Sequence record: KX828710
Reading direction: 5' to 3' (one strand)
Source of the DNA: Shigella phage SH6
Length of the DNA stretch: 50,552 nt
In this document: in pieces, positions 4,155 through 43,456 of the stretch
Layout: every line of letters starts with the position of its first letter
Position numbering within the stretch: position 1 is the first letter of the stretch
Position numbers and translations under genes: made by a program
Notes under the pieces: generated by a model
Seen by the model: the letters and a program-made list of their open reading frames with translations, nothing else
The model's database searches: none
What the model was told of the DNA's origin: nothing

Positions 4155-4425
4155 GTTAAAAATCGCCCAGATACATTTCATCGGAGTAATGAATGGGACT
4201 AAAACGGCAGAGTTCCGCGTCAATGACCGAAACTTCCAGCCCGGCGATATCCTTGAGCTACGCGAGTTCGATCGTGACGAATTTACCGGGTGGGAAGTTC
4301 ACGCCAGGGTGTCCGATGTTACAGATGTGACACCATACATCAATCGCGGGTATGACGAGCAAGAATGCGACTTCACGCAATACGTGATGTTATCAATCAA
4401 ACCTTACAGGAAGGTTAGACCATGA
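4138..4425 (+). CDS. ASCH/DUF3850-like (PUA-fold) protein
   Basis: N-terminus KLKIAQIHFIGVMNGTKTAEFRVNDRNFQPGDILELREF matches the DUF3850/ASCH pattern as I recall it. Confidence 0.5.
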   Translation: MSKTHKLKIAQIHFIGVMNGTKTAEFRVNDRNFQPGDILELREFDRDEFTGWEVHARVSDVTDVTPYINRGYDEQECDFTQYVMLSIKPYRKVRP

Positions 4426-5060
4426 AATTTGAATGCGTATCAAGTATCGGATCTGGTTTTAAGTACGGCAAAATCTACGAAGGCGCTCGCGTCAATGACG
4501 ACAGCTTCGTTATAGTTGATGAGTACGGTAGTAACGTGAACGTTGTACGGCGTCACGAATATCAGGAAATTTTCCTGCCTTATGGCGGTAGCTCAAAATA
4601 TATCTTCCATCGAATCGTGGATGGTGTTAAATTTAACGACGTAATCGAAGCAATCAACCAACTGCATAATAAAGAGGTAAGATTTATGAAATTCGAATGT
4701 ATCAGTGATAACACCAAAAAATTTACCGTTGGCAAAATCTACGACGTGCCTACTGAGCACGCAAAGCACACTGTAGCGCTGACCGACGACACGGGCCGAC
4801 ACCGCATTGCAACCGTAACTCATAATGGCGAAGGCCTTCGTTGGAACAGTGGCGGCACTAAGTTCGCAACTTTCGGTAAGAAGCGCAATCGCACTTTCCG
4901 CGTCAACGGCAAGATCAACACCAGCAAGATTAGCAACGTCAAGCCTATTAATGTTGACCGCAAGCCAGCAATGAAGTTTGAAGAGAAAGCAGACTTGTCT
5001 GGCCTAGCTATCGCTCTTGTTCTCCTTGTCGCTTCGATTTCGCTGATGTTCATCATGTAA
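4422..5060 (+). CDS. membrane-anchored protein with two tandem MKFEC...GKIY repeats
   Basis: Internal duplication (MKFECVSS..FKYGKIYEG / MKFECISD..FTVGKIYDV); C-terminal hydrophobic helix LSGLAIALVLLVASISLMFIM. Confidence 0.55.
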   Translation: MKFECVSSIGSGFKYGKIYEGARVNDDSFVIVDEYGSNVNVVRRHEYQEIFLPYGGSSKYIFHRIVDGVKFNDVIEAINQLHNKEVRFMKFECISDNTKKFTVGKIYDVPTEHAKHTVALTDDTGRHRIATVTHNGEGLRWNSGGTKFATFGKKRNRTFRVNGKINTSKISNVKPINVDRKPAMKFEEKADLSGLAIALVLLVASISLMFIM

Positions 5061-6014: not shown

Positions 6015-6548
6015 ATGGATAAAATTACCATTTGGGGCCAGACAATCAACCTGTTTCTCGGCACGCGCCGCGTAGCAATCTTTGACTTTGACGGAACACT
6101 TAGCGATGGATCTGGTCGACTTCACCTGCTACCTACAAAGGATTTGCACTTAACTGAAAGCTGGTCCGAGTTTAACCGCGCGGCAATATTTGACAACCCT
6201 ATCCAAAGCACGATCGATGTGATGAACTCTATGTTTGCCGCTGGATATCATGTAATAATTTTAACCGGGCGAAGTGATGAGGTGCGTTACGCATCTGAGT
6301 TATGGCTTAAGCATCACGGCGCTCGATATGATTACTTAGTCATGCGACCGCATACCGACAACCGCAAAGACACGGTAATGAAAGAAGAGGCGGTGCGCGC
6401 GATCGGCATTGATAACATTCTGGCGGCTTGGGATGACTCGCCGCAAATTATTCCATTATTCAGATCGCTTGGGATAACCACTTACGCTGTAGTTGACTAT
6501 GGCGATAACGTTCACAATCATTTAAAATCTCACGGGGTAGATGAATGA
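6015..6548 (+). CDS. HAD-superfamily phosphatase (nucleotidase / polynucleotide 3'-phosphatase-like)
   Basis: HAD motif I FDFDGTL, motif III-like ILTGRS, motif IV AAWDDSP. Confidence 0.6.
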   Translation: MDKITIWGQTINLFLGTRRVAIFDFDGTLSDGSGRLHLLPTKDLHLTESWSEFNRAAIFDNPIQSTIDVMNSMFAAGYHVIILTGRSDEVRYASELWLKHHGARYDYLVMRPHTDNRKDTVMKEEAVRAIGIDNILAAWDDSPQIIPLFRSLGITTYAVVDYGDNVHNHLKSHGVDE

Positions 6549-6656: not shown

Positions 6657-7229
6657 ATGAAAACAGCTATCATTTTAAACGGTGCGCCTGGCGCGGGAAA
6701 AGACACTATAGGGTGCATCCTGGCTGACACTTACGATCATGTAGCGCTACGCAGCTTTAAAGCTCCAATGTTTGAGATTGCCCGAGCAATCTTGGGTGAG
6801 ACTAATTTCGAGTATTTCATGTTCTTGTATGAGGACCGTCGCTATAAAGAAGAGCCAGCATCAATCCTGAATGGTAAAAGCCCGCGCCAGTTTATGATCT
6901 GGATTAGCGAGGAGGTCATCAAGCCGCAGTTCGGAAATCGCTTCTTCGGTATGCGAGCGGAAAGCAAGGTGAAAGAGTCGCACTCCCTTTCGGTATTTAC
7001 TGACGGTGGATTCAAAGATGAGATCCTACAAATGATTGAGGGTGATATCCAGGTTAAGCTATGTCGAATCCATCGCAACGGTTGCAGCTTTGATAACGAC
7101 AGCCGAGACTATATCTATCTTGACGACATGATCGGGGTTAACGGTTATCAGGAATGTGACTTCTTTTCTGTCGAAGGTCATCCAGAAATTACCGCTCAGC
7201 ACATAGCCGCCACGTTCATCAATAAATAG
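6657..7229 (+). CDS. deoxynucleoside monophosphate kinase-like P-loop kinase
   Basis: Walker A GAPGAGKDT and NGKSP motif, both resembling T4 gp1-type dNMP kinase. Confidence 0.55.
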   Translation: MKTAIILNGAPGAGKDTIGCILADTYDHVALRSFKAPMFEIARAILGETNFEYFMFLYEDRRYKEEPASILNGKSPRQFMIWISEEVIKPQFGNRFFGMRAESKVKESHSLSVFTDGGFKDEILQMIEGDIQVKLCRIHRNGCSFDNDSRDYIYLDDMIGVNGYQECDFFSVEGHPEITAQHIAATFINK

Positions 7230-9654: not shown

Positions 9655-11223
9655 ATGATTCAATGGGAAGACCTTAACGCAACGCAGAAGTTAGCGATCA
9701 AGAAAATGAGCGAGGCCAATTTCGAAAAAATGATTCGGATCTGGTTCCAGCTTATGCAGGCGCAGCAGTTCCAGCCTAACTGGCATCACCTTTACCTATG
9801 TCACGAAGTGGAGGAAATAATTGCAGGCCGACGCGGTAACACTATCTTTAACGTCACGCCAGGTTCCGGTAAAACTGAAGTGTTCTCAATTCACCTTCCG
9901 GTGTACGCAATGCTTAAGTGTAAAAAGGTGCGAAACCTTAACGTGTCGTTTGCCGACAGCTTGGTTAAGCGTAACAGTAAGCGTGTCCGTGAGATTATCA
10001 GCAGCAACGAATTTCAAGAGTTATGGCCTTGCAAGTTCGGTACATCGAAAGACGAGGAGATGCAGGTTCTTAACGAAGACGGAAAGGTTTGGTTTGAGTT
10101 GATATCAGCTGCGGCTGGAGGTCGTATTACAGGTTCTCGTGGTGGCTACATGATGCCGGGATTCTCCGGGATGGTAATGCTCGACGATATCGACAAGCCT
10201 GATGATATGTTCTCAAAGGTTAAGCGTGAGCGTACGCACATGCTATTGAAAAACACCATCCGTTCCCGTCGTATGCATAACGAGACTCCTATTATTGCAA
10301 TTCAGCAACGACTACATGCTCAGGATTCAACCTGGTTCATGATGAATGGCGGGATGGGTATTGAGTTTGACCAAATCTCAATACCGGCGCTGGTGACGGA
10401 AGAATACGGAAAGACACTTCCTGATTGGTTGCAGCCTTACTTTGAGCGTGATGTTTTATCGTCTGAGTATGTAGAATTGGATGGCGTTAAGCATTACTCT
10501 TTTTGGCCCAGCAAGGAAAGCGTTCACGACCTGTTAGCTCTTCGAGAAGCGGACCAGTATACCTTTGACTCTCAGTATCAGCAGAAGCCGATCGCGCTTG
10601 GTGGCTCCGTGTTCAATTCGGAGTGGTGGACTTATTACGGCAGCAGCCTTGACGCTGATGAGCCGGATCCGGGTAAATATGATTACCGTTTTATCACCGC
10701 TGATACCGCTCAGAAGACAGGTGAGCTAAACGACTACACAGTCTTTTGTTTATGGGGTAAGAAAAACGATAAGGTTTACTTTATCGACGGTATTCGCGGA
10801 AAGTGGGAAGCGCCGGATATGGAGAAGCAATTTACCGCTTTCGTCAACCAGGCATGGAGGCACAATAAATCAATGGGGGTGCTTCGTAAAATATATGTGG
10901 AAGATAAGGCGAGTGGTACGGGCTTAATCCAGAATCTAAGGAAAAAGACTCCGATATCCATCACTCCATTGCAGCGTAACAAAGACAAAGTTACCCGAGC
11001 TATGGATGCCCAGCCAGTTATTAAAGCCGGGCGCGTGGTTCTGCCAGAAGAGCACCCCATGCTTGCGGAAATTATCGCGGAACATAGCGCGTTCACTTAC
11101 GATGACACGCATCCGCACGACGATATTGTCGATAACTTCATGGACGCTGCAAACATTGAACTACTGACAATTGACGATCCTATCGAGAGAATGAAGCGAC
11201 TCGCCGGGATGGTTAAGCGGTAA
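9655..11223 (+). CDS. terL: terminase large subunit
   Basis: ~520 aa, Walker A TPGSGKTEV, directly upstream of portal. Confidence 0.8.
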   Translation: MIQWEDLNATQKLAIKKMSEANFEKMIRIWFQLMQAQQFQPNWHHLYLCHEVEEIIAGRRGNTIFNVTPGSGKTEVFSIHLPVYAMLKCKKVRNLNVSFADSLVKRNSKRVREIISSNEFQELWPCKFGTSKDEEMQVLNEDGKVWFELISAAAGGRITGSRGGYMMPGFSGMVMLDDIDKPDDMFSKVKRERTHMLLKNTIRSRRMHNETPIIAIQQRLHAQDSTWFMMNGGMGIEFDQISIPALVTEEYGKTLPDWLQPYFERDVLSSEYVELDGVKHYSFWPSKESVHDLLALREADQYTFDSQYQQKPIALGGSVFNSEWWTYYGSSLDADEPDPGKYDYRFITADTAQKTGELNDYTVFCLWGKKNDKVYFIDGIRGKWEAPDMEKQFTAFVNQAWRHNKSMGVLRKIYVEDKASGTGLIQNLRKKTPISITPLQRNKDKVTRAMDAQPVIKAGRVVLPEEHPMLAEIIAEHSAFTYDDTHPHDDIVDNFMDAANIELLTIDDPIERMKRLAGMVKR

Positions 11224-11277
11224 TAAATGAGATATAATCAGGGCTGTCAATTGACGGCCCTTTTTATTGGAGGAAAC

Positions 11278-12561
11278 ATGAAAATTGTTAAGCATGATGG
11301 ATATAACGATATTTTTAACGGCGGTGCAGACGGATCGCCTAAGCCATTCTTTATGTCTGATGCATCATATCACGTCGGTTCTTTCTACAACGACAACGCA
11401 ACCGCGAAGCGAATTGTGGATGTTATACCGGAAGAGATGGTGACGGCTGGTTTTAAAATGTCAGGCGTTAAGGATGAAAAAGAGTTCAAGTCTTTATGGG
11501 ATAGCTACAAACTTGATTCAAGTCTGGTGGATCTTCTTTGTTGGGCGCGACTTTACGGTGGCGCGGCGATGGTGGCAATCATCAAAGACAACCGGATGTT
11601 AACCAGTCAGGCAAAGCCTGGAGCCAAACTTGAAGGCGTCCGAGTTTACGATCGATTTGCTATCACTGTTGAAAAGCGAGTCACCAATGCAAGATCCCCT
11701 CGCTATGGTGAGCCTGAAATTTACAAGGTATCCCCTGGCGACAATATGCAGCCGTATCTGATTCATCACTCAAGAGTCTTTATTGCTGATGGTGAACGAG
11801 TAACGCAACAGGCAAGAAAGCAGAATCAAGGATGGGGAGCTTCGGTATTGAACAAGTCACTGATTGATGCAATCTGTGACTATGATTACTGTGAATCTCT
11901 TGCTACTCAGATCTTGCGACGTAAGCAACAGGCTGTATGGAAGGTCAAAGGTCTTGCTGAAATGTGTGATGATGATGATGCTCAGTATGCCGCGCGACTG
12001 CGACTTGCTCAGGTTGATGATAACTCCGGCGTAGGCCGTGCGATCGGTATCGATGCTGAGACTGAGGAATATGATGTTCTCAACTCTGATATCAGCGGAG
12101 TTCCTGAGTTCTTATCAAGCAAGATGGACCGCATCGTCTCCCTATCCGGGATTCATGAGATTATCATCAAGAATAAGAACGTAGGCGGCGTATCAGCGAG
12201 CCAAAACACAGCGCTTGAGACTTTCTATAAGCTAGTCGATCGCAAGCGCGAGGAAGATTACAGGCCGCTTCTTGAGTTCTTGTTGCCGTTCATTGTTGAT
12301 GAGGAAGAGTGGTCGATCGAGTTTGAGCCTTTGTCTGTTCCGAGTAAGAAAGAGGAATCAGAGATCACGAAGAATAACGTTGAGTCAGTCACGAAGGCTA
12401 TCACTGAGCAAATCATCGATCTGGAAGAAGCTCGCGACACGTTGCGATCCATTGCCCCTGAGTTCAAACTCAAGGATGGTAATAACATCAACATTCGCGA
12501 ACAGGAAGAAACAACCGAACCGGAGCCGGGATTAGGGGAGAAGTTAGAAGATGAAAATTAA
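11278..12561 (+). CDS. portal protein
   Basis: ~430 aa after terL; acidic C-terminus; GGAGGAAAC RBS before internal ATG. Confidence 0.75.
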   Translation: MKIVKHDGYNDIFNGGADGSPKPFFMSDASYHVGSFYNDNATAKRIVDVIPEEMVTAGFKMSGVKDEKEFKSLWDSYKLDSSLVDLLCWARLYGGAAMVAIIKDNRMLTSQAKPGAKLEGVRVYDRFAITVEKRVTNARSPRYGEPEIYKVSPGDNMQPYLIHHSRVFIADGERVTQQARKQNQGWGASVLNKSLIDAICDYDYCESLATQILRRKQQAVWKVKGLAEMCDDDDAQYAARLRLAQVDDNSGVGRAIGIDAETEEYDVLNSDISGVPEFLSSKMDRIVSLSGIHEIIIKNKNVGGVSASQNTALETFYKLVDRKREEDYRPLLEFLLPFIVDEEEWSIEFEPLSVPSKKEESEITKNNVESVTKAITEQIIDLEEARDTLRSIAPEFKLKDGNNINIREQEETTEPEPGLGEKLEDEN

Positions 12562-36544: not shown

Positions 36545-38563
36545 GTGACAATGAACATTAAAAAGCAGATTGCATTACTTGGCGAGGACTACATAAAGCG
36601 AACTCAGGAGCGATTTACTGTTGGTGAGGTTATTCCTTATCCGTACCAGGTTGTTGCTTATGCTGAGATCGCGAAACGCCTATCAAATTACGAGCATCCA
36701 TTCTTTGTTAAAGCGTCGGTGTCTGCGGGTAAGACCATCATTTTTGCTATGGTTGCAAAGCAGTGTCAGAAAATGGGCTTAAAAATGCTTGTGCTGGCCC
36801 GTCAGGGTGAGATTGTCGATCAGGATAGCGAAGAGATCGACAACTTCGGCGTTACTAACTCAATATTCTCAGCCTCATTAGGTATTAAGTCCTGCTATTT
36901 TCCGATCGTGGTAGGCTCCGAGGGTACGGTTGCAAATGGCCTCGACAATGAGCTTGCTGATTTCGTCCCGCATGTAATTGGGATCGACGAATGTCACCAG
37001 GTGGATTGGGAAGACCTTGCGCAAGCCATTGAGGGCAAGGAAACAATGGAACAAATGAGGGGCGAGAAGGGAAAAATCATCATGGATGGAGATATTCCCA
37101 TGATTGGTAATGATGGAAAACCTTTGTTTGGGACTAAGCGCAGTCAGTACACGATCGTAATCATGGAAATGATGCGGCGCTGTAAAAAGGTTCACGGTCA
37201 CGATCTCAGAATATTTGGTATGACTGGATCTGAATTTCGTGGCGTAGTTCCTATTCTGGTAGAGAATCCGAAAGCATTGGGATTCTGGCGTGAGCGAGTA
37301 ACTGATATCGACACAAACTATCTGATTGAGTTCGGTTCTGTTGTGCCGACAATATTCGGTTCAACAGACGGAGTTCATTACGATCTGGATAAGTTCAAGG
37401 CGTCGAGCGAGGACGGAGTGCAGGACTTTACAGAGAAAGACATGAAGGCTATGGAAGATGAGATCCTTCATGATAAATCTCTTACTCAGCGAATCATGCA
37501 AATGGTTGCCAAAAAGGCTGAAGAGCGTAACGCGGTACTGATTACATGTGCTGGTGTGCGCCACTGCAAAGAGGCAGCGGCAGCACTTCCTCCGGGAAGC
37601 ACCTATGCAATTATTACTGGCGACACAGACAACAAAACGCGCAAGAAGATTCTTGACGATGTAAGGGCCGGAAAAATTAAATACACCTTTCAGGTAATGG
37701 CGCTCACTACTGGCGTTAACGTTCCAAATTGGGATTTCAGTGTCATACTCCGCAAGATAGGGTCGCTCACGCTGTTGATTCAACTCTTGGGTAGGGGTAT
37801 GCGTCTGCTTAAATCCTGGCAGGTTGCTGAGGGAATGGTTAAGCAGGACCATCTGGTATGGGATTTCGCAGGTACGATGGATGAGTTGGGTCAGCTTTAT
37901 TTCGATCCGATACTTGAGCAGGCGCAATTCCAAAAGCGTTTCGAAAACGGCAAAGATCCGAAAACATGTCCGAAATGCGGTTGCGTAAATAGCTTCTATG
38001 CTCGACGATGCGTTAATGTCATTGATGGTGAGCGTTGCGATCATTTCTGGACTTCTCAGATTTGTGAGGACCAGGTTGACGAGCGCACCGGAAAAATCCT
38101 TGTTAAAGGATGCGGCGCAGAGAATGACGTTGTGGCCCGAGTCTGTCGTTGCTGTGATGTTTCGCTTGTCGATCCTAACCTGAAGTTATCCGGTAAGGCG
38201 TACACTAAGAATGACTGGTATGAAGTAAAGAATTTTGAGGTTACGCTAACCAAAAACCAGAAAGGCATAATATACAAATACACTCTTATTAACGATGATG
38301 GTGATGAGTTCAAGGCGTATGAAAAATTCTTCCCCGAGTCTGACTCTAAGATTTGCGGTACGCTATGGAAAACTAAAGGTGTATTGCCACACGTATCAGA
38401 TCCTAAAATGCGCCGATACTTTATCGGAATGAAGAGCGCCATCAAGATTTTGCAATACTCACATCATATTGCTCACCCGGTGCGCGTAACTCATCGTCGC
38501 AACCAGAAGAAAGAAGATATTATCTCACGAAAAGACTTTGGTATGGAGGATATCCCGGAATGA
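36545..38563 (+). CDS. ATP-dependent DNA helicase (DEAD/DEAH-box superfamily 2) with C-terminal zinc ribbons
   Basis: Walker A SAGKTIIF, DECH box, CPKCGC..C..C and CGAEN..CRCC clusters. Confidence 0.75.
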   Translation: MTMNIKKQIALLGEDYIKRTQERFTVGEVIPYPYQVVAYAEIAKRLSNYEHPFFVKASVSAGKTIIFAMVAKQCQKMGLKMLVLARQGEIVDQDSEEIDNFGVTNSIFSASLGIKSCYFPIVVGSEGTVANGLDNELADFVPHVIGIDECHQVDWEDLAQAIEGKETMEQMRGEKGKIIMDGDIPMIGNDGKPLFGTKRSQYTIVIMEMMRRCKKVHGHDLRIFGMTGSEFRGVVPILVENPKALGFWRERVTDIDTNYLIEFGSVVPTIFGSTDGVHYDLDKFKASSEDGVQDFTEKDMKAMEDEILHDKSLTQRIMQMVAKKAEERNAVLITCAGVRHCKEAAAALPPGSTYAIITGDTDNKTRKKILDDVRAGKIKYTFQVMALTTGVNVPNWDFSVILRKIGSLTLLIQLLGRGMRLLKSWQVAEGMVKQDHLVWDFAGTMDELGQLYFDPILEQAQFQKRFENGKDPKTCPKCGCVNSFYARRCVNVIDGERCDHFWTSQICEDQVDERTGKILVKGCGAENDVVARVCRCCDVSLVDPNLKLSGKAYTKNDWYEVKNFEVTLTKNQKGIIYKYTLINDDGDEFKAYEKFFPESDSKICGTLWKTKGVLPHVSDPKMRRYFIGMKSAIKILQYSHHIAHPVRVTHRRNQKKEDIISRKDFGMEDIPE

Positions 38564-38976
38564 TTACAGACAAAGGTGATTATTTAGAATTTTACGAGAG
38601 AGATCCGAGCGACACTCGAAAGGAGGACGCTCATCAGGTGGATTGTGTATCTTGGCTGAAATACAATTTTCCTCACCTTCTATTTTGGCACACCGTCAAT
38701 GAGGGTGAAAAAACAATCACATCGGCGCTCAGGGATGAGCAGTCCGGATTACTTAAAGGTGTGTCAGACTTCGTTATCCTGATTGGTATTAACTCACGCT
38801 ACCCGTTCGCAGCTATCGAACTCAAGCGGGTTAATAAGTCAGGCAAAGGAAAGGCGTCACCAGTCAGTGATAAGCAGAAGGAGTTTCTCCGAAAGGTCCG
38901 AGAACGTGGCGGCTTCCCTGCTGTCGCATACGGATTCGAACAGTTCAAAGTCGCAATTTACGAATTGATGAAATAG
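38560..38976 (+). CDS. VRR-NUC domain nuclease
   Basis: VSDFVILI..AAIELKR..S..Q pattern of VRR-NUC (PD-(D/E)xK). Confidence 0.65.
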   Translation: MITDKGDYLEFYERDPSDTRKEDAHQVDCVSWLKYNFPHLLFWHTVNEGEKTITSALRDEQSGLLKGVSDFVILIGINSRYPFAAIELKRVNKSGKGKASPVSDKQKEFLRKVRERGGFPAVAYGFEQFKVAIYELMK

Positions 38977-39043: not shown

Positions 39044-39757
39044 ATGAAAGACTTTAATGATATTGAAACCATCGACTTTGCAGAGACTGGGTGCTCATTC
39101 ACTCGCGAAGCAATAGCATCAGGCGGTTATTATCAGGCGTTAAAAACGCCAACATGCAAAGAGATTTCAGGTCGTCGATATAAGGGTACAAACACACCTG
39201 ACGCAGTTCGTGATTTATGGTCAACTCCACGAGAGGTTATTGCATACCTTGAGGGTCGGTACGGAAAATACGATCTCGACGCTGCGGCAAGCGAAGAAAA
39301 TAAAGTTTGCGATAAGTTCTACTCCCAAGAAACAAACTGCTTAAAACGTTGGTGGGGTAAGAATAAGCACGTTTGGTTAAACCCTCCTTATAGCCGACCT
39401 GATATATTCGTCAAGAAGGCTATTGAGCAAATGGAGCACAACAACCAGATCGATATACTGTTACCAGCCGATAACTCTACGGCGTGGTTTACTGAGGCGC
39501 GGCAGAACGCAGCTGAAATCATCTGGATTGAAGCGGACTTGACTGAGGATGTTGACGGAAATGAATACGCACGATCCGGTCGTCTGGCCTTCATATCCGG
39601 TGAAACTGGAAAGGCCGTAGATGGCAATAACAAAGGTTCGGTAATTTTTATTATGCGCGAACTTAAAGAAGGTGAGGTGCAACAGACTCACTACATCCCA
39701 ATCACAAGCATTTGCCCTTCGGTGAAAAACAAACGAGCAAAGGTGAGAAAAGTATGA
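39044..39757 (+). CDS. dam: DNA N6-adenine methyltransferase (phage Dam type)
   Basis: DLDAAAS and WLNPPYS motifs. Confidence 0.8.
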   Translation: MKDFNDIETIDFAETGCSFTREAIASGGYYQALKTPTCKEISGRRYKGTNTPDAVRDLWSTPREVIAYLEGRYGKYDLDAAASEENKVCDKFYSQETNCLKRWWGKNKHVWLNPPYSRPDIFVKKAIEQMEHNNQIDILLPADNSTAWFTEARQNAAEIIWIEADLTEDVDGNEYARSGRLAFISGETGKAVDGNNKGSVIFIMRELKEGEVQQTHYIPITSICPSVKNKRAKVRKV

Positions 39758-40071: not shown

Positions 40072-40281
40072 ATGGCACGCATTAACGCAAACTTTTTCAA
40101 TATCGCTCAACAGTCCGCAAAAATGGCTGTTCATATCACTGACAAGAAAGGCGGCAACTTTGATTGGGATATTGCTATGAACTTCCTTAAAATGGCTTAT
40201 TACCTCTGCTCAGTCAAAGATGTTGAATGTTTTATTGAAAGCGTGGAGAAATTAACTAATGCTGATAAAAAAACAAGGTAA
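40072..40281 (+). CDS. hypothetical protein (69 aa)
   Basis: Internal ATG of track ORF 40057..40281 with GAGGAATCAGAAG RBS; cassette upstream. Confidence 0.5.
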   Translation: MARINANFFNIAQQSAKMAVHITDKKGGNFDWDIAMNFLKMAYYLCSVKDVECFIESVEKLTNADKKTR

Positions 40282-40531
40282 GCGCGAGGTTTGGGAGCAC
40301 GCAAAGGAATGCGGCATCTCAGACGATATAGCATTAATTGCTAAATACTTTGATATAAAGGATGTTAGCATTATCTCAAACGGCAAGATTTCATTTATGG
40401 AAGATATGCCGAGAAAAATGCACAGAGTTCCAGCAACTCCATCACTTGAGTTTTATCGTGAAGAAGGAAAGAGAATTGAACGAGAACGAAAGGCAACAAA
40501 AAACAGTAAGTCTTCCTGGCTTAAACATTAA
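40259..40531 (+). CDS. hypothetical protein (90 aa)
   Basis: ORF track; overlaps next frame. Confidence 0.45.
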   Translation: MLIKKQGKREVWEHAKECGISDDIALIAKYFDIKDVSIISNGKISFMEDMPRKMHRVPATPSLEFYREEGKRIERERKATKNSKSSWLKH

Positions 40532-40763
40532 CTCAGATAACTACCAGACCATATGGATCGGAAAGAAGCAGGTTAAGAAAATCCCTTTCTCTGATTGGTT
40601 GCCTCCTGACTTCGTTAACGTGCTTTGCACTATTGGGATCGAGCAAGAGTTGCATATAGGTTATTACTCACCAGGTAGAAACAGTATGATGCTTGAGGTT
40701 GATGGAAAACTGGTTGAGTTTAAATCTTCAGATCTAGGATTCTGGTTAAAGGCTGTGGCATGA
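40362..40763 (+). CDS. hypothetical reading frame (protein-like only from ~40540); possible continuation of 40259..40531 by +1 frameshift or sequencing indel
   Basis: Track ORF; no canonical start codon after 40531 in this frame. Confidence 0.3.
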   Translation: MLALSQTARFHLWKICREKCTEFQQLHHLSFIVKKERELNENERQQKTVSLPGLNINSDNYQTIWIGKKQVKKIPFSDWLPPDFVNVLCTIGIEQELHIGYYSPGRNSMMLEVDGKLVEFKSSDLGFWLKAVA

Positions 40764-40841
40764 TACTTTATTTTGCTGTAGTATTAACACCGCTAATTTC
40801 ATTTTCAGTAATGTATTTCATTATCATGTAAGGATTAAAAT

Positions 40842-41993
40842 ATGTCACAAGCTAAAATCACTACCGAGCAACTTATCGAAGAACGTATGAACGGACTTAC
40901 ACTTCGCGAGATCGCGGAAAAGTACGGTATGCACATTCGCACTGTCGAGGCGCGTCACGCAAAACTTGCAAAAGAAGGCCACTTCCACGGTAACGAGCAT
41001 GTTGCTAAAAACGTGCCGGAAGGCTTCATGGTAAAAGGCACTTCTACGATGATTCGCGGCGATGGGACTGAGGTAGTTCGCTGGGTTAAGACCGATCAGG
41101 ACCGTGAGAAGATTGCGGCAATGATGGAAGCTGCGCGTATTGCATTCTGTGAAGACCTGCCGCGAGCAAAGCCAACCGAGCTACTAACCTCGCAAGGGCT
41201 TACGACAGCGATGGGTAAGCTGGCACTCTATCCGGTATTCGATCTCCATATTGGCGCGCTTGCTCATAAGCATGAATGCGGTGAGAACTATTCCACCGAC
41301 GTAGCGGAAAAAGTGCTTAGCGACTTCTTTAATTACGCGATCGATATTGCGCCGAACGCAGAGAAGGCTGTTCTGTTAATCGGCGGCGACTTCCTTCACT
41401 CTGACGGCCTTGACGCTGTTACCCCGGCAAGTGGTCACGTTCTAGATCAGGATTCACGATATGCGAAATTGGTGCATGTAGCGATTCGTTCGGTGCGTCG
41501 CGCCATCGACAAAATGCTTATGAAACACAAAGAAGTCGAGGTCCAAGTTATCGAAGGGAACCACGATCAGTCTGGGATGATTTGGCTGCGAGCTGCAATG
41601 TCGGCATATTATGAAGACGAGCCGCGAGTATTCGTTGACGTTAGTCCTATGATTCTGCATAAGACTCGTTGGGGAAATACCTTGTTGGGATACACTCACG
41701 GGCACACTATGAAAAAGGCAGACACGCGACTTGCAGCAATGGCGGCAGATTTCCGATCAGACTTCGGCGAGAGCAAGTATGTGTATACTCATAGTGGTCA
41801 CTGGCATCACCAGACAATCACTGAGCACTCGCTTGGTATTGATGAAGTACACGGTCAGTTAGGCGCGAAAGACGCATACGCAGCACGCGGAGGGTGGCGC
41901 TCATATCGCCAGGCGGCTGTAATTGTTTACGATAAGCAGTTTGGGGAAATCGGTCGATTCATCTACCGTCCAGAAATGACAGGATCGCACTAA
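40842..41993 (+). CDS. calcineurin-like metallophosphoesterase (Mre11/SbcD-like motifs) with N-terminal HTH
   Basis: Motifs DLHIG, GGDFLH, GNHD, plus His-rich C-terminus; N-terminal LTLREIAEKYGMHIRTVEARHAKL HTH. Confidence 0.6.
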   Translation: MSQAKITTEQLIEERMNGLTLREIAEKYGMHIRTVEARHAKLAKEGHFHGNEHVAKNVPEGFMVKGTSTMIRGDGTEVVRWVKTDQDREKIAAMMEAARIAFCEDLPRAKPTELLTSQGLTTAMGKLALYPVFDLHIGALAHKHECGENYSTDVAEKVLSDFFNYAIDIAPNAEKAVLLIGGDFLHSDGLDAVTPASGHVLDQDSRYAKLVHVAIRSVRRAIDKMLMKHKEVEVQVIEGNHDQSGMIWLRAAMSAYYEDEPRVFVDVSPMILHKTRWGNTLLGYTHGHTMKKADTRLAAMAADFRSDFGESKYVYTHSGHWHHQTITEHSLGIDEVHGQLGAKDAYAARGGWRSYRQAAVIVYDKQFGEIGRFIYRPEMTGSH

Positions 41994-42027
41994 TTGATAA
42001 AAATGCCCGAAGGGATTCGGGTATAGT
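41985..42027 (+). promoter_or_regulatory. intergenic cassette (variant) upstream of 42057..42233
   Basis: GCACTAATTGATAAAAA variant; TATAGT at +22 in CCCGAA/TTCGGG hairpin. Confidence 0.45.
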
Positions 42028-42056
42028 AACCACATCGAAAACAAAGAGGCTATATC

Positions 42057-42233
42057 ATGAAGCTAGTTAAGTGCATCCGAAATGACTCCAAAACACTTCC
42101 ATTCCGTGTAAATCAGATCTATAGTGTTGGTTATGATTTCGGTGGGGGATTATTTGAGATTTACGACGGGAGAGGTTCAGCAATCCAGACTCCTCTGAAC
42201 GGTAGCTATCTGGAATTTATTGCGATAGATTAA
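42057..42233 (+). CDS. small protein (58 aa), member of KC..F.V..IY..DG domain family
   Basis: Own translation MKLVKCIRNDSKTLPFRVNQIYSVGYDFGGGLFEIYDGRGS...; cassette and AAGAGG RBS upstream. Confidence 0.45.
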   Translation: MKLVKCIRNDSKTLPFRVNQIYSVGYDFGGGLFEIYDGRGSAIQTPLNGSYLEFIAID

Positions 42234-42255
42234 CAATATCATTCATCACCTTACA

Positions 42256-42286
42256 GGCTGGCATGGTTTACATGCTGGCCTTTTTG
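42256..42286 (+). terminator. terminator-like hairpin before lysis cassette
   Basis: Imperfect GGCTGGCATG..CATGCTGGCC hairpin + TTTTT. Confidence 0.4.
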
Positions 42287-42351
42287 CGTTGTATCAAGTA
42301 AATTTGAAGGTTAAAATCGACTCACTTGTTCAAAAAATATATGGTGAGATT

Positions 42352-42567
42352 ATGAAAGAGTTTTTAACGGCTGCCACGTCAAGCACTGGCGGTGCTTCGT
42401 TGGTAGGGGCGGCGACAGGGCAACTTTATATTGCTGGCGCTACATTCATTTGCTTTCTGCTTTTTGGTGCCTGGGGAGCGTACTGGAAGTATCGTGATAG
42501 TAAGGCAATTCAGGAAGCGTTAAACGATGGCGATCTAAATAAGGCGCTTAAGATCAGGGGGAGATAA
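42352..42567 (+). CDS. holin
   Basis: 71 aa with hydrophobic TM segment and charged C-terminus; directly upstream of endolysin; ATG at residue 22 of track ORF. Confidence 0.65.
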
Positions 42568-43055
42568 TGAGTTTAAAAAATAACGTTATAGGCGCATCGA
42601 TCGGGGCCGCTTTGACGTTGACACCTACCCTACTGGAACGAATCGAAGGTATAGAATACGAGGTTTATTACGATATCGCCGGAGTCCCTACCGTATGCAG
42701 CGGAATAACCGGGCCGGACGTAATACCCGGTAAGAAATACACTAAGCGAGAATGCGATGCATTGCTGATAAAACATATCGGCGTCGCTCAGCGATACGTC
42801 GACAAGAAGGTAAAGGTTGACATCCCGGTAACTATGCGAGCATCACTGTATAGCTTCACTTTCAACGTCGGGACTGGCGCGTTCGGATCTTCTACAATGC
42901 TTAAGCTAATAAATCAGAGTAAGCACAAGGAAGCGTGCAATCAGTTATGGCGATGGGTGTACTACTACAACCCAAAAACCAAAAAGCGCGAAGTGTCTAG
43001 AGGACTCAAGAACCGACGCGCTGAAGAATACGCGTATTGCGTTAAGGAATTATGA
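42567..43055 (+). CDS. endolysin (phage lysozyme, GH24-like)
   Basis: N-terminal [22 protein letters not shown] lysozyme signature; 162 aa. Confidence 0.8.
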
Positions 43056-43456
43056 TGAAACTGGAGAAAACGTGCATTGCGATTGCAGTGGCTGTTGGTG
43101 TTATTTCCCTATCAGGTTGCTCGACGGCATCTGCCCTGAGCGGTTTAATCGGATCTAAACCTGAAGTTACAGCGCAAATCGGAGAGGAGAACACAAAGCA
43201 ATTAGCAGGAGTAACCGCAAAATCCGAAGATAAACGAGATGTTAAAGTTGAAAAGTCCAATGTAGGAAAGGTTGACTCTTCCGTGAAGAAGTCAATTGAA
43301 GTGTCAACCATTCAGGCCAACACGGTTAACGCTGAAAGCATCACAGTAACAAAACCGGAAAGCTGGTACGATACTATCGTTGGCTGGACTCTCGTTTTTA
43401 TTGGTCTATTGCTTGTTTGTTTTTCACTTCGTAAGTACGAAAAAAAGGAGGCGTAA
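43052..43456 (+). CDS. unimolecular spanin (T1 gp11-type)
   Basis: Lipoprotein signal with lipobox LSGC and C-terminal TM helix [13 protein letters not shown] in one polypeptide. Confidence 0.7.

Follow-up and report, generated by a model that had tools for sequence, protein, structure and literature searches.

The gene at 40842..41993 (plus strand) of the DNA analyzed here raises the question of what a T1-like phage does with a phosphoesterase that resembles Mre11/SbcD, has no evident Rad50 partner and is fused to an N-terminal helix-turn-helix (HTH) domain. This DNA (the window, all 50,552 nucleotides of Shigella phage SH6, record KX828710) was found to be the complete genome of a Tunavirus (T1-like, Drexlerviridae), with 92-95% DNA identity to phages CLB_P3, Eco_BIFF, ISF002 and ADB-2 across long stretches. 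Based on the ORF list and a profile match, the gene is a whole coding sequence of 383 aa with an ATG start, orthologous to T1 gene 16 and a member of PHROG 704. Inspection of the sequence revealed a Shine-Dalgarno-like AAGGA that lies 7 nt ahead of the ATG (40830..40834, plus strand). The initial annotation placed the gene between modification genes and the lysis cassette, and this location was borne out by a Dam-type methyltransferase gene upstream (39044-39757) and by holin, endolysin and spanin genes downstream (42289-43456). A terminator scan revealed a GC-rich hairpin right after the stop codon (42006..42021), at the position where the T1 record annotates a rho-independent terminator 3' of gene 16. 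Between the phosphoesterase and holin genes lies a gene for a 58-aa SH3-like protein (DUF7244, PHROG 4788; 42057-42233), which a recent paper assigned to the lysis cassette. A strong terminator-like hairpin (42255-42281), formed by an 11-bp stem ahead of a T-run, separates the SH3-like gene from the holin gene, which begins at 42289; thus, the SH3-like gene may share a transcript with the phosphoesterase gene rather than with the lysis cassette.

The interval between the phosphoesterase and SH3-like genes (41994-42056) is without the HNH homing-endonuclease gene that is inserted at this site in T1 (12029-12511 of locus L156) and Bas01 (4204-4689 of locus L157). Further upstream, a VRR-NUC-type nuclease gene (38560-38976; PHROG 824, weak endonuclease match) overlaps the stop codon of the gene for a 672-aa helicase; it represents another nuclease in the rightward block of the phosphoesterase gene and a further candidate for a host-DNA-degrading activity. 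The mechanically called ORF of 133 aa at 40362-40763 overlaps the ORF at 40259-40531 and is probably overlong, as its PHROG matches span residues 50-133 only and reference genomes annotate a gene of 95 aa.

The catalytic domain was examined by use of an alignment of 83 relatives that share 31-67% identity. A calcineurin-like metallophosphoesterase domain with an Mre11/DP1-like core was assigned to aa 123-375 (41208..41966, plus strand, as are all motifs listed here), and all five superfamily motifs (DxH, GDxx(D/H), GNH(D/E), H and GHxH) were present in order. These correspond to motif I DLHIG (aa 134-138; 41241..41255), motif II GGDFLH (aa 181-186; 41382..41399), motif III GNHD (aa 239-242; 41556..41567), motif IV THGH (aa 285-288; 41694..41705) and motif V GHWHH (aa 319-323; 41796..41810). 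Thus, the DLHIG, GGDFLH and GNHD motifs that were originally proposed do occur in the order claimed. The histidines of the C-terminal region, described at that time as a His-rich feature, are likewise present but do not form a separate element; they are the metal ligands of motifs IV and V. Residues D134, H136, G182, D183, N240, H241, H286, G319 and H322 were invariant among the 83 relatives, as was motif III, and the Mre11-type H186 of motif II, G287 and H320 were at least 90% conserved. This level of conservation reveals that the motifs are not due to chance and that selection acts on a binuclear metal site which is still intact. The two-layer beta-sandwich phosphoesterase fold was also found, and motif II aligned with GDLLH of Thermotoga maritima Mre11. 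By contrast to this conservation, the protein scored only 16.0 bits against Pfam PF00149, below the gathering cut-off of 21.5, and 22 of the 83 relatives matched this model at an E value of 0.01 or lower; the threshold is missed because the family has diverged too far to be captured by this model. A loop that is specific to the family, TPASGHVLDQDSR (aa 194-206; 41421..41459), follows motif II and has T194, L201, D202, D204 and R206 conserved at 90% or above; judged from this pattern, the loop is probably part of the substrate site.

The region that precedes the catalytic domain was analyzed by structure prediction and by family-wide profile searches. AlphaFold was unusable from the single sequence (pLDDT 40); with the 83-sequence alignment, AlphaFold2 returned a model of pLDDT 93 and pTM 0.82 that consists of an HTH, a long beta-hairpin plus helix and a phosphoesterase sandwich that ends about 60 residues past motif V. 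The N-terminal three-helix HTH DNA-binding domain (aa 8-44; 40863..40973, plus strand) has helices at residues 8-16, 21-27 and 32-44 with pLDDT values of 94-96. In this protein alone the HTH was below threshold (Pfam E values of 0.01-0.016), whereas across the family Pfam matches were detected to HTH_1 in 17 members, HTH_8 in 16, Sigma70_r4_2 in 11 (best E value 1.5e-9) and GerE in 5 (best E value 2.4e-8); the family profile also matched the GerE structure 1fse with an E value of 0.042. The HTH-like segment first noted at aa 19-42 is therefore upheld by the family matches and the predicted three-helix bundle, in spite of its subthreshold score in the single protein. The HTH is joined to the catalytic domain by a conserved beta-hairpin (aa 62-86) and helix (aa 88-104), placed from the secondary structure of the AlphaFold2 model (41025..41153, plus strand), in which G75 and W81 are at least 90% conserved. 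In most of the distant relatives the conserved core of the family starts near residue 57, with this hairpin. HTH or winged-HTH modules of other kinds, or tandem ones, are present in longer relatives, and a few shorter relatives (311-320 aa) are without an HTH. The recurrence of several HTH types, some in tandem, argues that DNA binding is required.

The family that shares this architecture proved to be large and already annotated. Residues 4-380 of the protein matched PHROG 704, labeled "DNA repair exonuclease", over profile positions 2-389 of 390 (E value 1.1e-157). A search of 1.84 billion representative proteins returned 4,653 clusters of relatives at an E value of 1e-3 or lower, 964 of which were at 1e-30 or lower, and nearly all matched clusters were of 360-450 aa. 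By tblastn, the family was detected in 2,017 phage records with hosts that include Escherichia, Klebsiella, Salmonella, Vibrio and Rhodobacter, and it is present in many prophages of proteobacteria as well. Thus, the fusion of an HTH to a phosphoesterase is not unusual but is a widespread family with existing labels, and these labels vary from "DNA repair exonuclease" and "phosphoesterase" to "DNA binding protein" and "hypothetical protein". The label "DNA repair exonuclease" derives from fold similarity alone. The re-annotation of phage TLS includes a "proof-reading exonuclease (gp66)", which is probably the PHROG 704 ortholog of that phage, and a 2026 study of 42 Tunavirus genomes described the order exonuclease-SH3-holin-endolysin-spanin as persistent (39 of 42). 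Literature searches on a phosphoesterase of Drexlerviridae or Tunavirus yielded nothing but genome announcements. The closest known proteins belong to the same family and occupy the same genomic position, with nothing essential different: identity was 72% to T1 gp16 and 66% to Bas01_0050, the latter assigned as the ortholog on the basis of synteny as well as this identity. Compared with T1 gene 16 (10823-11956 of locus L156), residues 1-70, which comprise the HTH and the first part of the hairpin, were almost identical and the remainder about 66% identical; this difference indicates that the gene is mosaic and suggests, at the level of sequence comparison, a recombination junction near the domain boundary. 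The ortholog from Escherichia coli Drexlerviridae shares 96-97% identity with proteins encoded in two phage records attributed to other hosts, MG065688 (Campylobacter phage A110b) and PP134917 (Pseudomonas phage PsgS01F). The PsgS01F record, attributed to a Pseudomonas syringae phage, is 44,679 bp, exactly the length of one E. coli phage record, and contamination by T1-like phages in the laboratory, or wrong assignment of the host, may account for these records.

We compared the predicted structure with those of known phosphoesterases. Based on the model, the catalytic core is of the nuclease (Mre11/DP1) type by a modest margin over other phosphoesterases, as MJ0936, Rv0805, GpdQ and YfcE scored just behind the nucleases; a PDB sequence search with the single protein gave only noise. 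The protein shares with Mre11/SbcD the nuclease-type phosphoesterase core and the motif II histidine. Unlike Mre11/SbcD, including T4 gp47 and T5 D13, it has no capping domain and no Rad50-binding region and instead begins with the HTH; the modeled chain of 383 residues lacks any helical C-terminal extension that could represent the Rad50/SbcC-binding helices. SbcD/Mre11 models in NCBIfam and Pfam gave no match (the best nuclease-related match was PdeM, E value 0.095), and in a search of viral structures phage SbcD-type proteins fell far below the family members (rank 49, E value 2.6e-7). The absence of an SbcC/Rad50-like partner was confirmed for the ORFs of the window, where the 672-aa helicase is the only large ORF to display a classical Walker A motif, and for the annotated T1-type reference genomes. 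No such gene was found adjoining the family gene in Jerseyvirus, Casjensviridae, Vibrio or N4-like phages. Canonical Mre11/SbcD was accordingly ruled out by the missing capping domain, Rad50-binding C-terminus, partner gene and curated-model match, so that the proposed fusion of an HTH with an Mre11/SbcD-like enzyme holds for the HTH and for an Mre11/DP1-like core but not for a canonical Mre11/SbcD. That the protein is nevertheless a true SbcD/Mre11 subunit which borrows host SbcC as its ATPase would agree with Mre11 and SbcD being among its closest folds and with the motif II histidine they have in common, but is very improbable given that the roughly 60 residues past motif V are beta-strands only, with neither the capping domain nor the SbcC-binding helices, and given its lack of SbcD/Mre11 sequence-model matches and the rank of the phage SbcD-type proteins.

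The small subunit DP1 of archaeal PolD is a 3'-5' proofreading exonuclease. The phosphodiesterase domain of DP1 is similar to that of the window protein; by contrast to DP1, the latter has no evident complete OB fold or elements for interaction with DP2, but just a two-strand hairpin before the catalytic domain. No DNA polymerase gene was annotated in the T1-type reference genomes inspected, and thus a polymerase partner for proofreading is not evident. Lambda NinI and PPP-type Ser/Thr phosphatases were considered as a further candidate class and rejected, as the GDxxDRG and GNHE motifs and the PPP fold were not found.

Phage proteins of comparable design were next considered. The pre-early protein A1 of T5 (PHROG 1745) is a predicted metallophosphatase that has been likened both to polymerase proofreaders and to nucleases of double-strand-break repair. 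The protein is toxic and interacts with RNA polymerase, and it is both required and sufficient for the breakdown of host DNA. Phages that escape retron Eco2 carry mutations that map to the nuclease and N-terminal DNA-binding domains of A1. We found that A1 relatives carry N-terminal HTH Pfam domains and that the DxH, NHD, HGH and GHxH positions are invariant in the A1 family. The window protein shares with A1 an N-terminal DNA-binding region, a C-terminal phosphoesterase and the lack of a Rad50 partner. A1 differs in being of 556 aa, essential, pre-early and required for second-step DNA transfer, and in having SNHD as motif III, a distinct motif II and membership in PHROG 1745 rather than 704. 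When the two were compared by hhalign, a probability of 19-34% was obtained (E values of 1e-3 to 4e-4), with motifs III-V in register and motif I out of register. Mycobacteriophage Bxb1 gp47 and A10ZJ24 Gp48 are likewise stand-alone phage phosphoesterases and have the same nearest folds as the window protein (Mre11, DP1 and LpxH). They have been reported to show phosphodiesterase or weak exonuclease activity and to act in the replication of phage DNA and in host-DNA breakage; Gp48 disrupts host genomic DNA, and gp47 is required for replication and doubles as an integrase directionality factor. Bxb1 gp47 differs from the window protein in its size (about 255 aa) and its lack of an HTH, and the gp47/Gp48 family is a separate one (PHROG 221 versus 704; hhalign E value 0.005, probability 7%). 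Profile-profile alignment supported links to gp47 and A1 at the level of the superfamily only, and we regard both as analogues rather than relatives. The window protein thus belongs with the stand-alone Mre11/DP1-like phosphoesterases of phages, a kind that is already known.

Genetic evidence for the family comes from a 2026 preprint on the defense system DRT7/UG10, in which Bas1 escapers were found to carry missense or frameshift mutations in Bas01_0050, termed there "a putative nucleic acid-targeting phosphoesterase". Both kinds of escaper are viable, and the frameshift mutants form plaques. Co-expression of Bas01_0050 with DRT7 was impossible, as the protein is toxic in E. coli when expressed from pBAD. 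Taken together, these reports indicate that the gene is dispensable in the laboratory, that it is harmful when expressed alone, and that its activity sensitizes the phage to DRT7. Lambda escapes DRT7 in another way, through loss of Gam. T1 and TLS are known to break down the host genome and reuse its nucleotides, with no responsible gene named in the literature as of 2024. According to Roberts & Drexler (1981), as cited in a later study, T1 mutants that fail to degrade host DNA are viable and transduce at high frequency, and their viability is consistent with a dispensable gene. Escape from defense through loss of a nuclease that degrades host DNA has precedents in denA, denB and A1, and one Tunavirinae phage has been found sensitive to a defense that senses host-DNA breakdown products. 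The papers on Metis, PUA-Cal-HAD, anthracyclines and "conserved folds" held nothing specific to the PHROG 704 family.

This evidence bears on whether the enzyme might act on small molecules or RNA ends, with the HTH serving only for autoregulation. Such an enzyme could hydrolyze immune signals made of cyclic (oligo)nucleotides, or nucleotides, or else 2',3'-cyclic or 3'-phosphate ends processed together with the phage PNK. The superfamily does include cyclic-nucleotide phosphodiesterases and nucleotide hydrolases, and the near-nuclease scores of MJ0936, Rv0805, GpdQ and YfcE fit such an enzyme, as do a PNK-like gene next door in Webervirus-type genomes and a dispensable gene tied to a defense phenotype. 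Loss of the gene, however, aids the phage against DRT7, which is the opposite of what is expected of a counter-defense enzyme, and the protein is toxic by itself. Moreover, the gene is a persistent core gene and not a variable accessory, its DNA-binding N-terminal modules recur in varied forms, and the protein matched none of the PADLOC defense-system models. We consider a small-molecule or RNA-end enzyme improbable.

The genomic context of the family was examined by gathering 148 related loci with a 12-sequence alignment as query, calling their ORFs and clustering the encoded proteins. Among the 68 loci from bacterial genomes, 27 were on contigs of more than 100 kb, which indicates that the family is common in prophages. 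Loci outside of Drexlerviridae displayed a consistent polarity, with NinB, NinG, DnaB or endolysin genes upstream and TerS, TerL and portal genes downstream; a recognizable TerL was present within 10 genes downstream in at least 24 of 106 loci and upstream in none. Within Webervirus-type Drexlerviridae, a PNK-like gene (PHROG 415) occupied position +1 (16 loci) and a dNMP kinase gene (PHROG 139) position +2 (18 loci). In the window the corresponding PNK-like (6015-6548) and dNMP kinase (6657-7229) genes are adjacent to each other. The SH3-like gene (DUF7244) was considered as a conserved two-gene partner and rejected, as HMM searches placed it downstream in 16 loci, all of them closest relatives. 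In Jerseyvirus (Salmonella phage SETP13, 3759-5588 of locus L002) the family gene was found in a small opposite-strand island inside the tail-gene block. Its neighbors there are two short unknown ORFs and a gene for a 59-aa "immunity to superinfection" protein (PHROG 1039); such a location is odd for a gene of DNA metabolism.

The gene immediately precedes the lysis cassette in the window and, in prophage-type loci, occupies the junction of early and late genes where lambda Q is found; such positions could also be those of a regulator. Such a protein would be mainly a transcription factor, an activator of late or lysis genes or a binder of RNA polymerase with an HTH like sigma-70 region 4, to which the phosphoesterase would be accessory. 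The Sigma70_r4_2 and GerE-type HTH matches agree with this, and T5 A1 also interacts with RNA polymerase. Against it, the catalytic residues are invariant in very divergent relatives, which argues that catalysis is the selected function, and relatives of 311-320 aa dispense with the HTH altogether. Terminator-like hairpins stand between the phosphoesterase gene and the holin gene, and lysis and plaque formation persist in the frameshift mutants. A role mainly in transcription is quite improbable, even more so than action on small molecules.

The Nin and terminase neighborhood and the prophage distribution fit a nuclease of phage replication or recombination, which would process ends, hairpins or branched intermediates alongside RecE/Erf, the helicase and the VRR-NUC protein. 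Such an enzyme would resemble T4 gp46/47 without the Rad50 component, or follow the precedent of Bxb1 gp47. Nevertheless, Bas01_0050 frameshift mutants form plaques whereas gp47 is required for replication, and the two proteins have no PHROG in common. Strong toxicity in the absence of other phage proteins suggests that host DNA is attacked, although toxicity might likewise arise from an end-processing nuclease that has escaped regulation. A replication or recombination nuclease is the main rival to degradation of host DNA, and we regard it as unlikely, if less so than the other alternatives.

Of the activities that were initially put forward for this protein (a DNA-targeted nuclease or phosphatase, or a regulator with enzymatic activity), a DNA-directed nuclease of some kind is thus favored as likely, while the small-molecule and mainly regulatory readings lose ground. 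That the protein degrades host DNA during infection by phages of the T1/TLS type is a narrower proposal, which we rate at somewhat less than an even chance. According to this proposal, the protein would be a stand-alone nuclease with a binuclear metal site and a core like those of Mre11 and PolD-DP1 that does not need Rad50, with the HTH and the conserved beta-hairpin keeping the enzyme on DNA in lieu of a capping domain and Rad50. The enzyme would cut DNA in the infected cell, most likely the host chromosome; the products could feed the phage PNK-like phosphatase and dNMP kinase, and the cleavage may generate the DNA damage or free ends to which DRT7 responds. The host chromosome is favored as target for several reasons: the host genome is broken down and its nucleotides are recycled in T1 and TLS infection, with the gene for this unnamed; the Bas01 ortholog is toxic yet dispensable, similarly to the viable T1 host-degradation mutants; genes of nucleotide salvage adjoin the family gene in some lineages; and phages have repeatedly escaped defenses by losing a nuclease that degrades host DNA. 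We tentatively propose, with less confidence than for host-DNA degradation by itself, that PHROG 704 is the host-chromosome nuclease of T1 and TLS, that it represents a widespread Rad50-independent class of Mre11-like enzymes with exchangeable HTH targeting, and that DRT7 detects its activity and not the protein.

The PHROG 704 family is thus a concrete and easily tested candidate for the gene of host-genome degradation in T1-type phages. It is a core gene in about 2,000 sequenced phages and in many prophages, and has a genetic link to DRT7. If the protein is an Mre11-like DNase that acts without Rad50, a function would be given to the very common label "DNA repair exonuclease", the means by which DRT7 senses Drexlerviridae would be explained, and sensitivity or escape could be predicted for defenses that sense host-DNA breakdown, such as Metis and PUA-Cal-HAD. 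The high-frequency transduction by T1 host-degradation mutants, as cited from the 1981 report, would also give the gene practical import for the safety of therapeutic Drexlerviridae.
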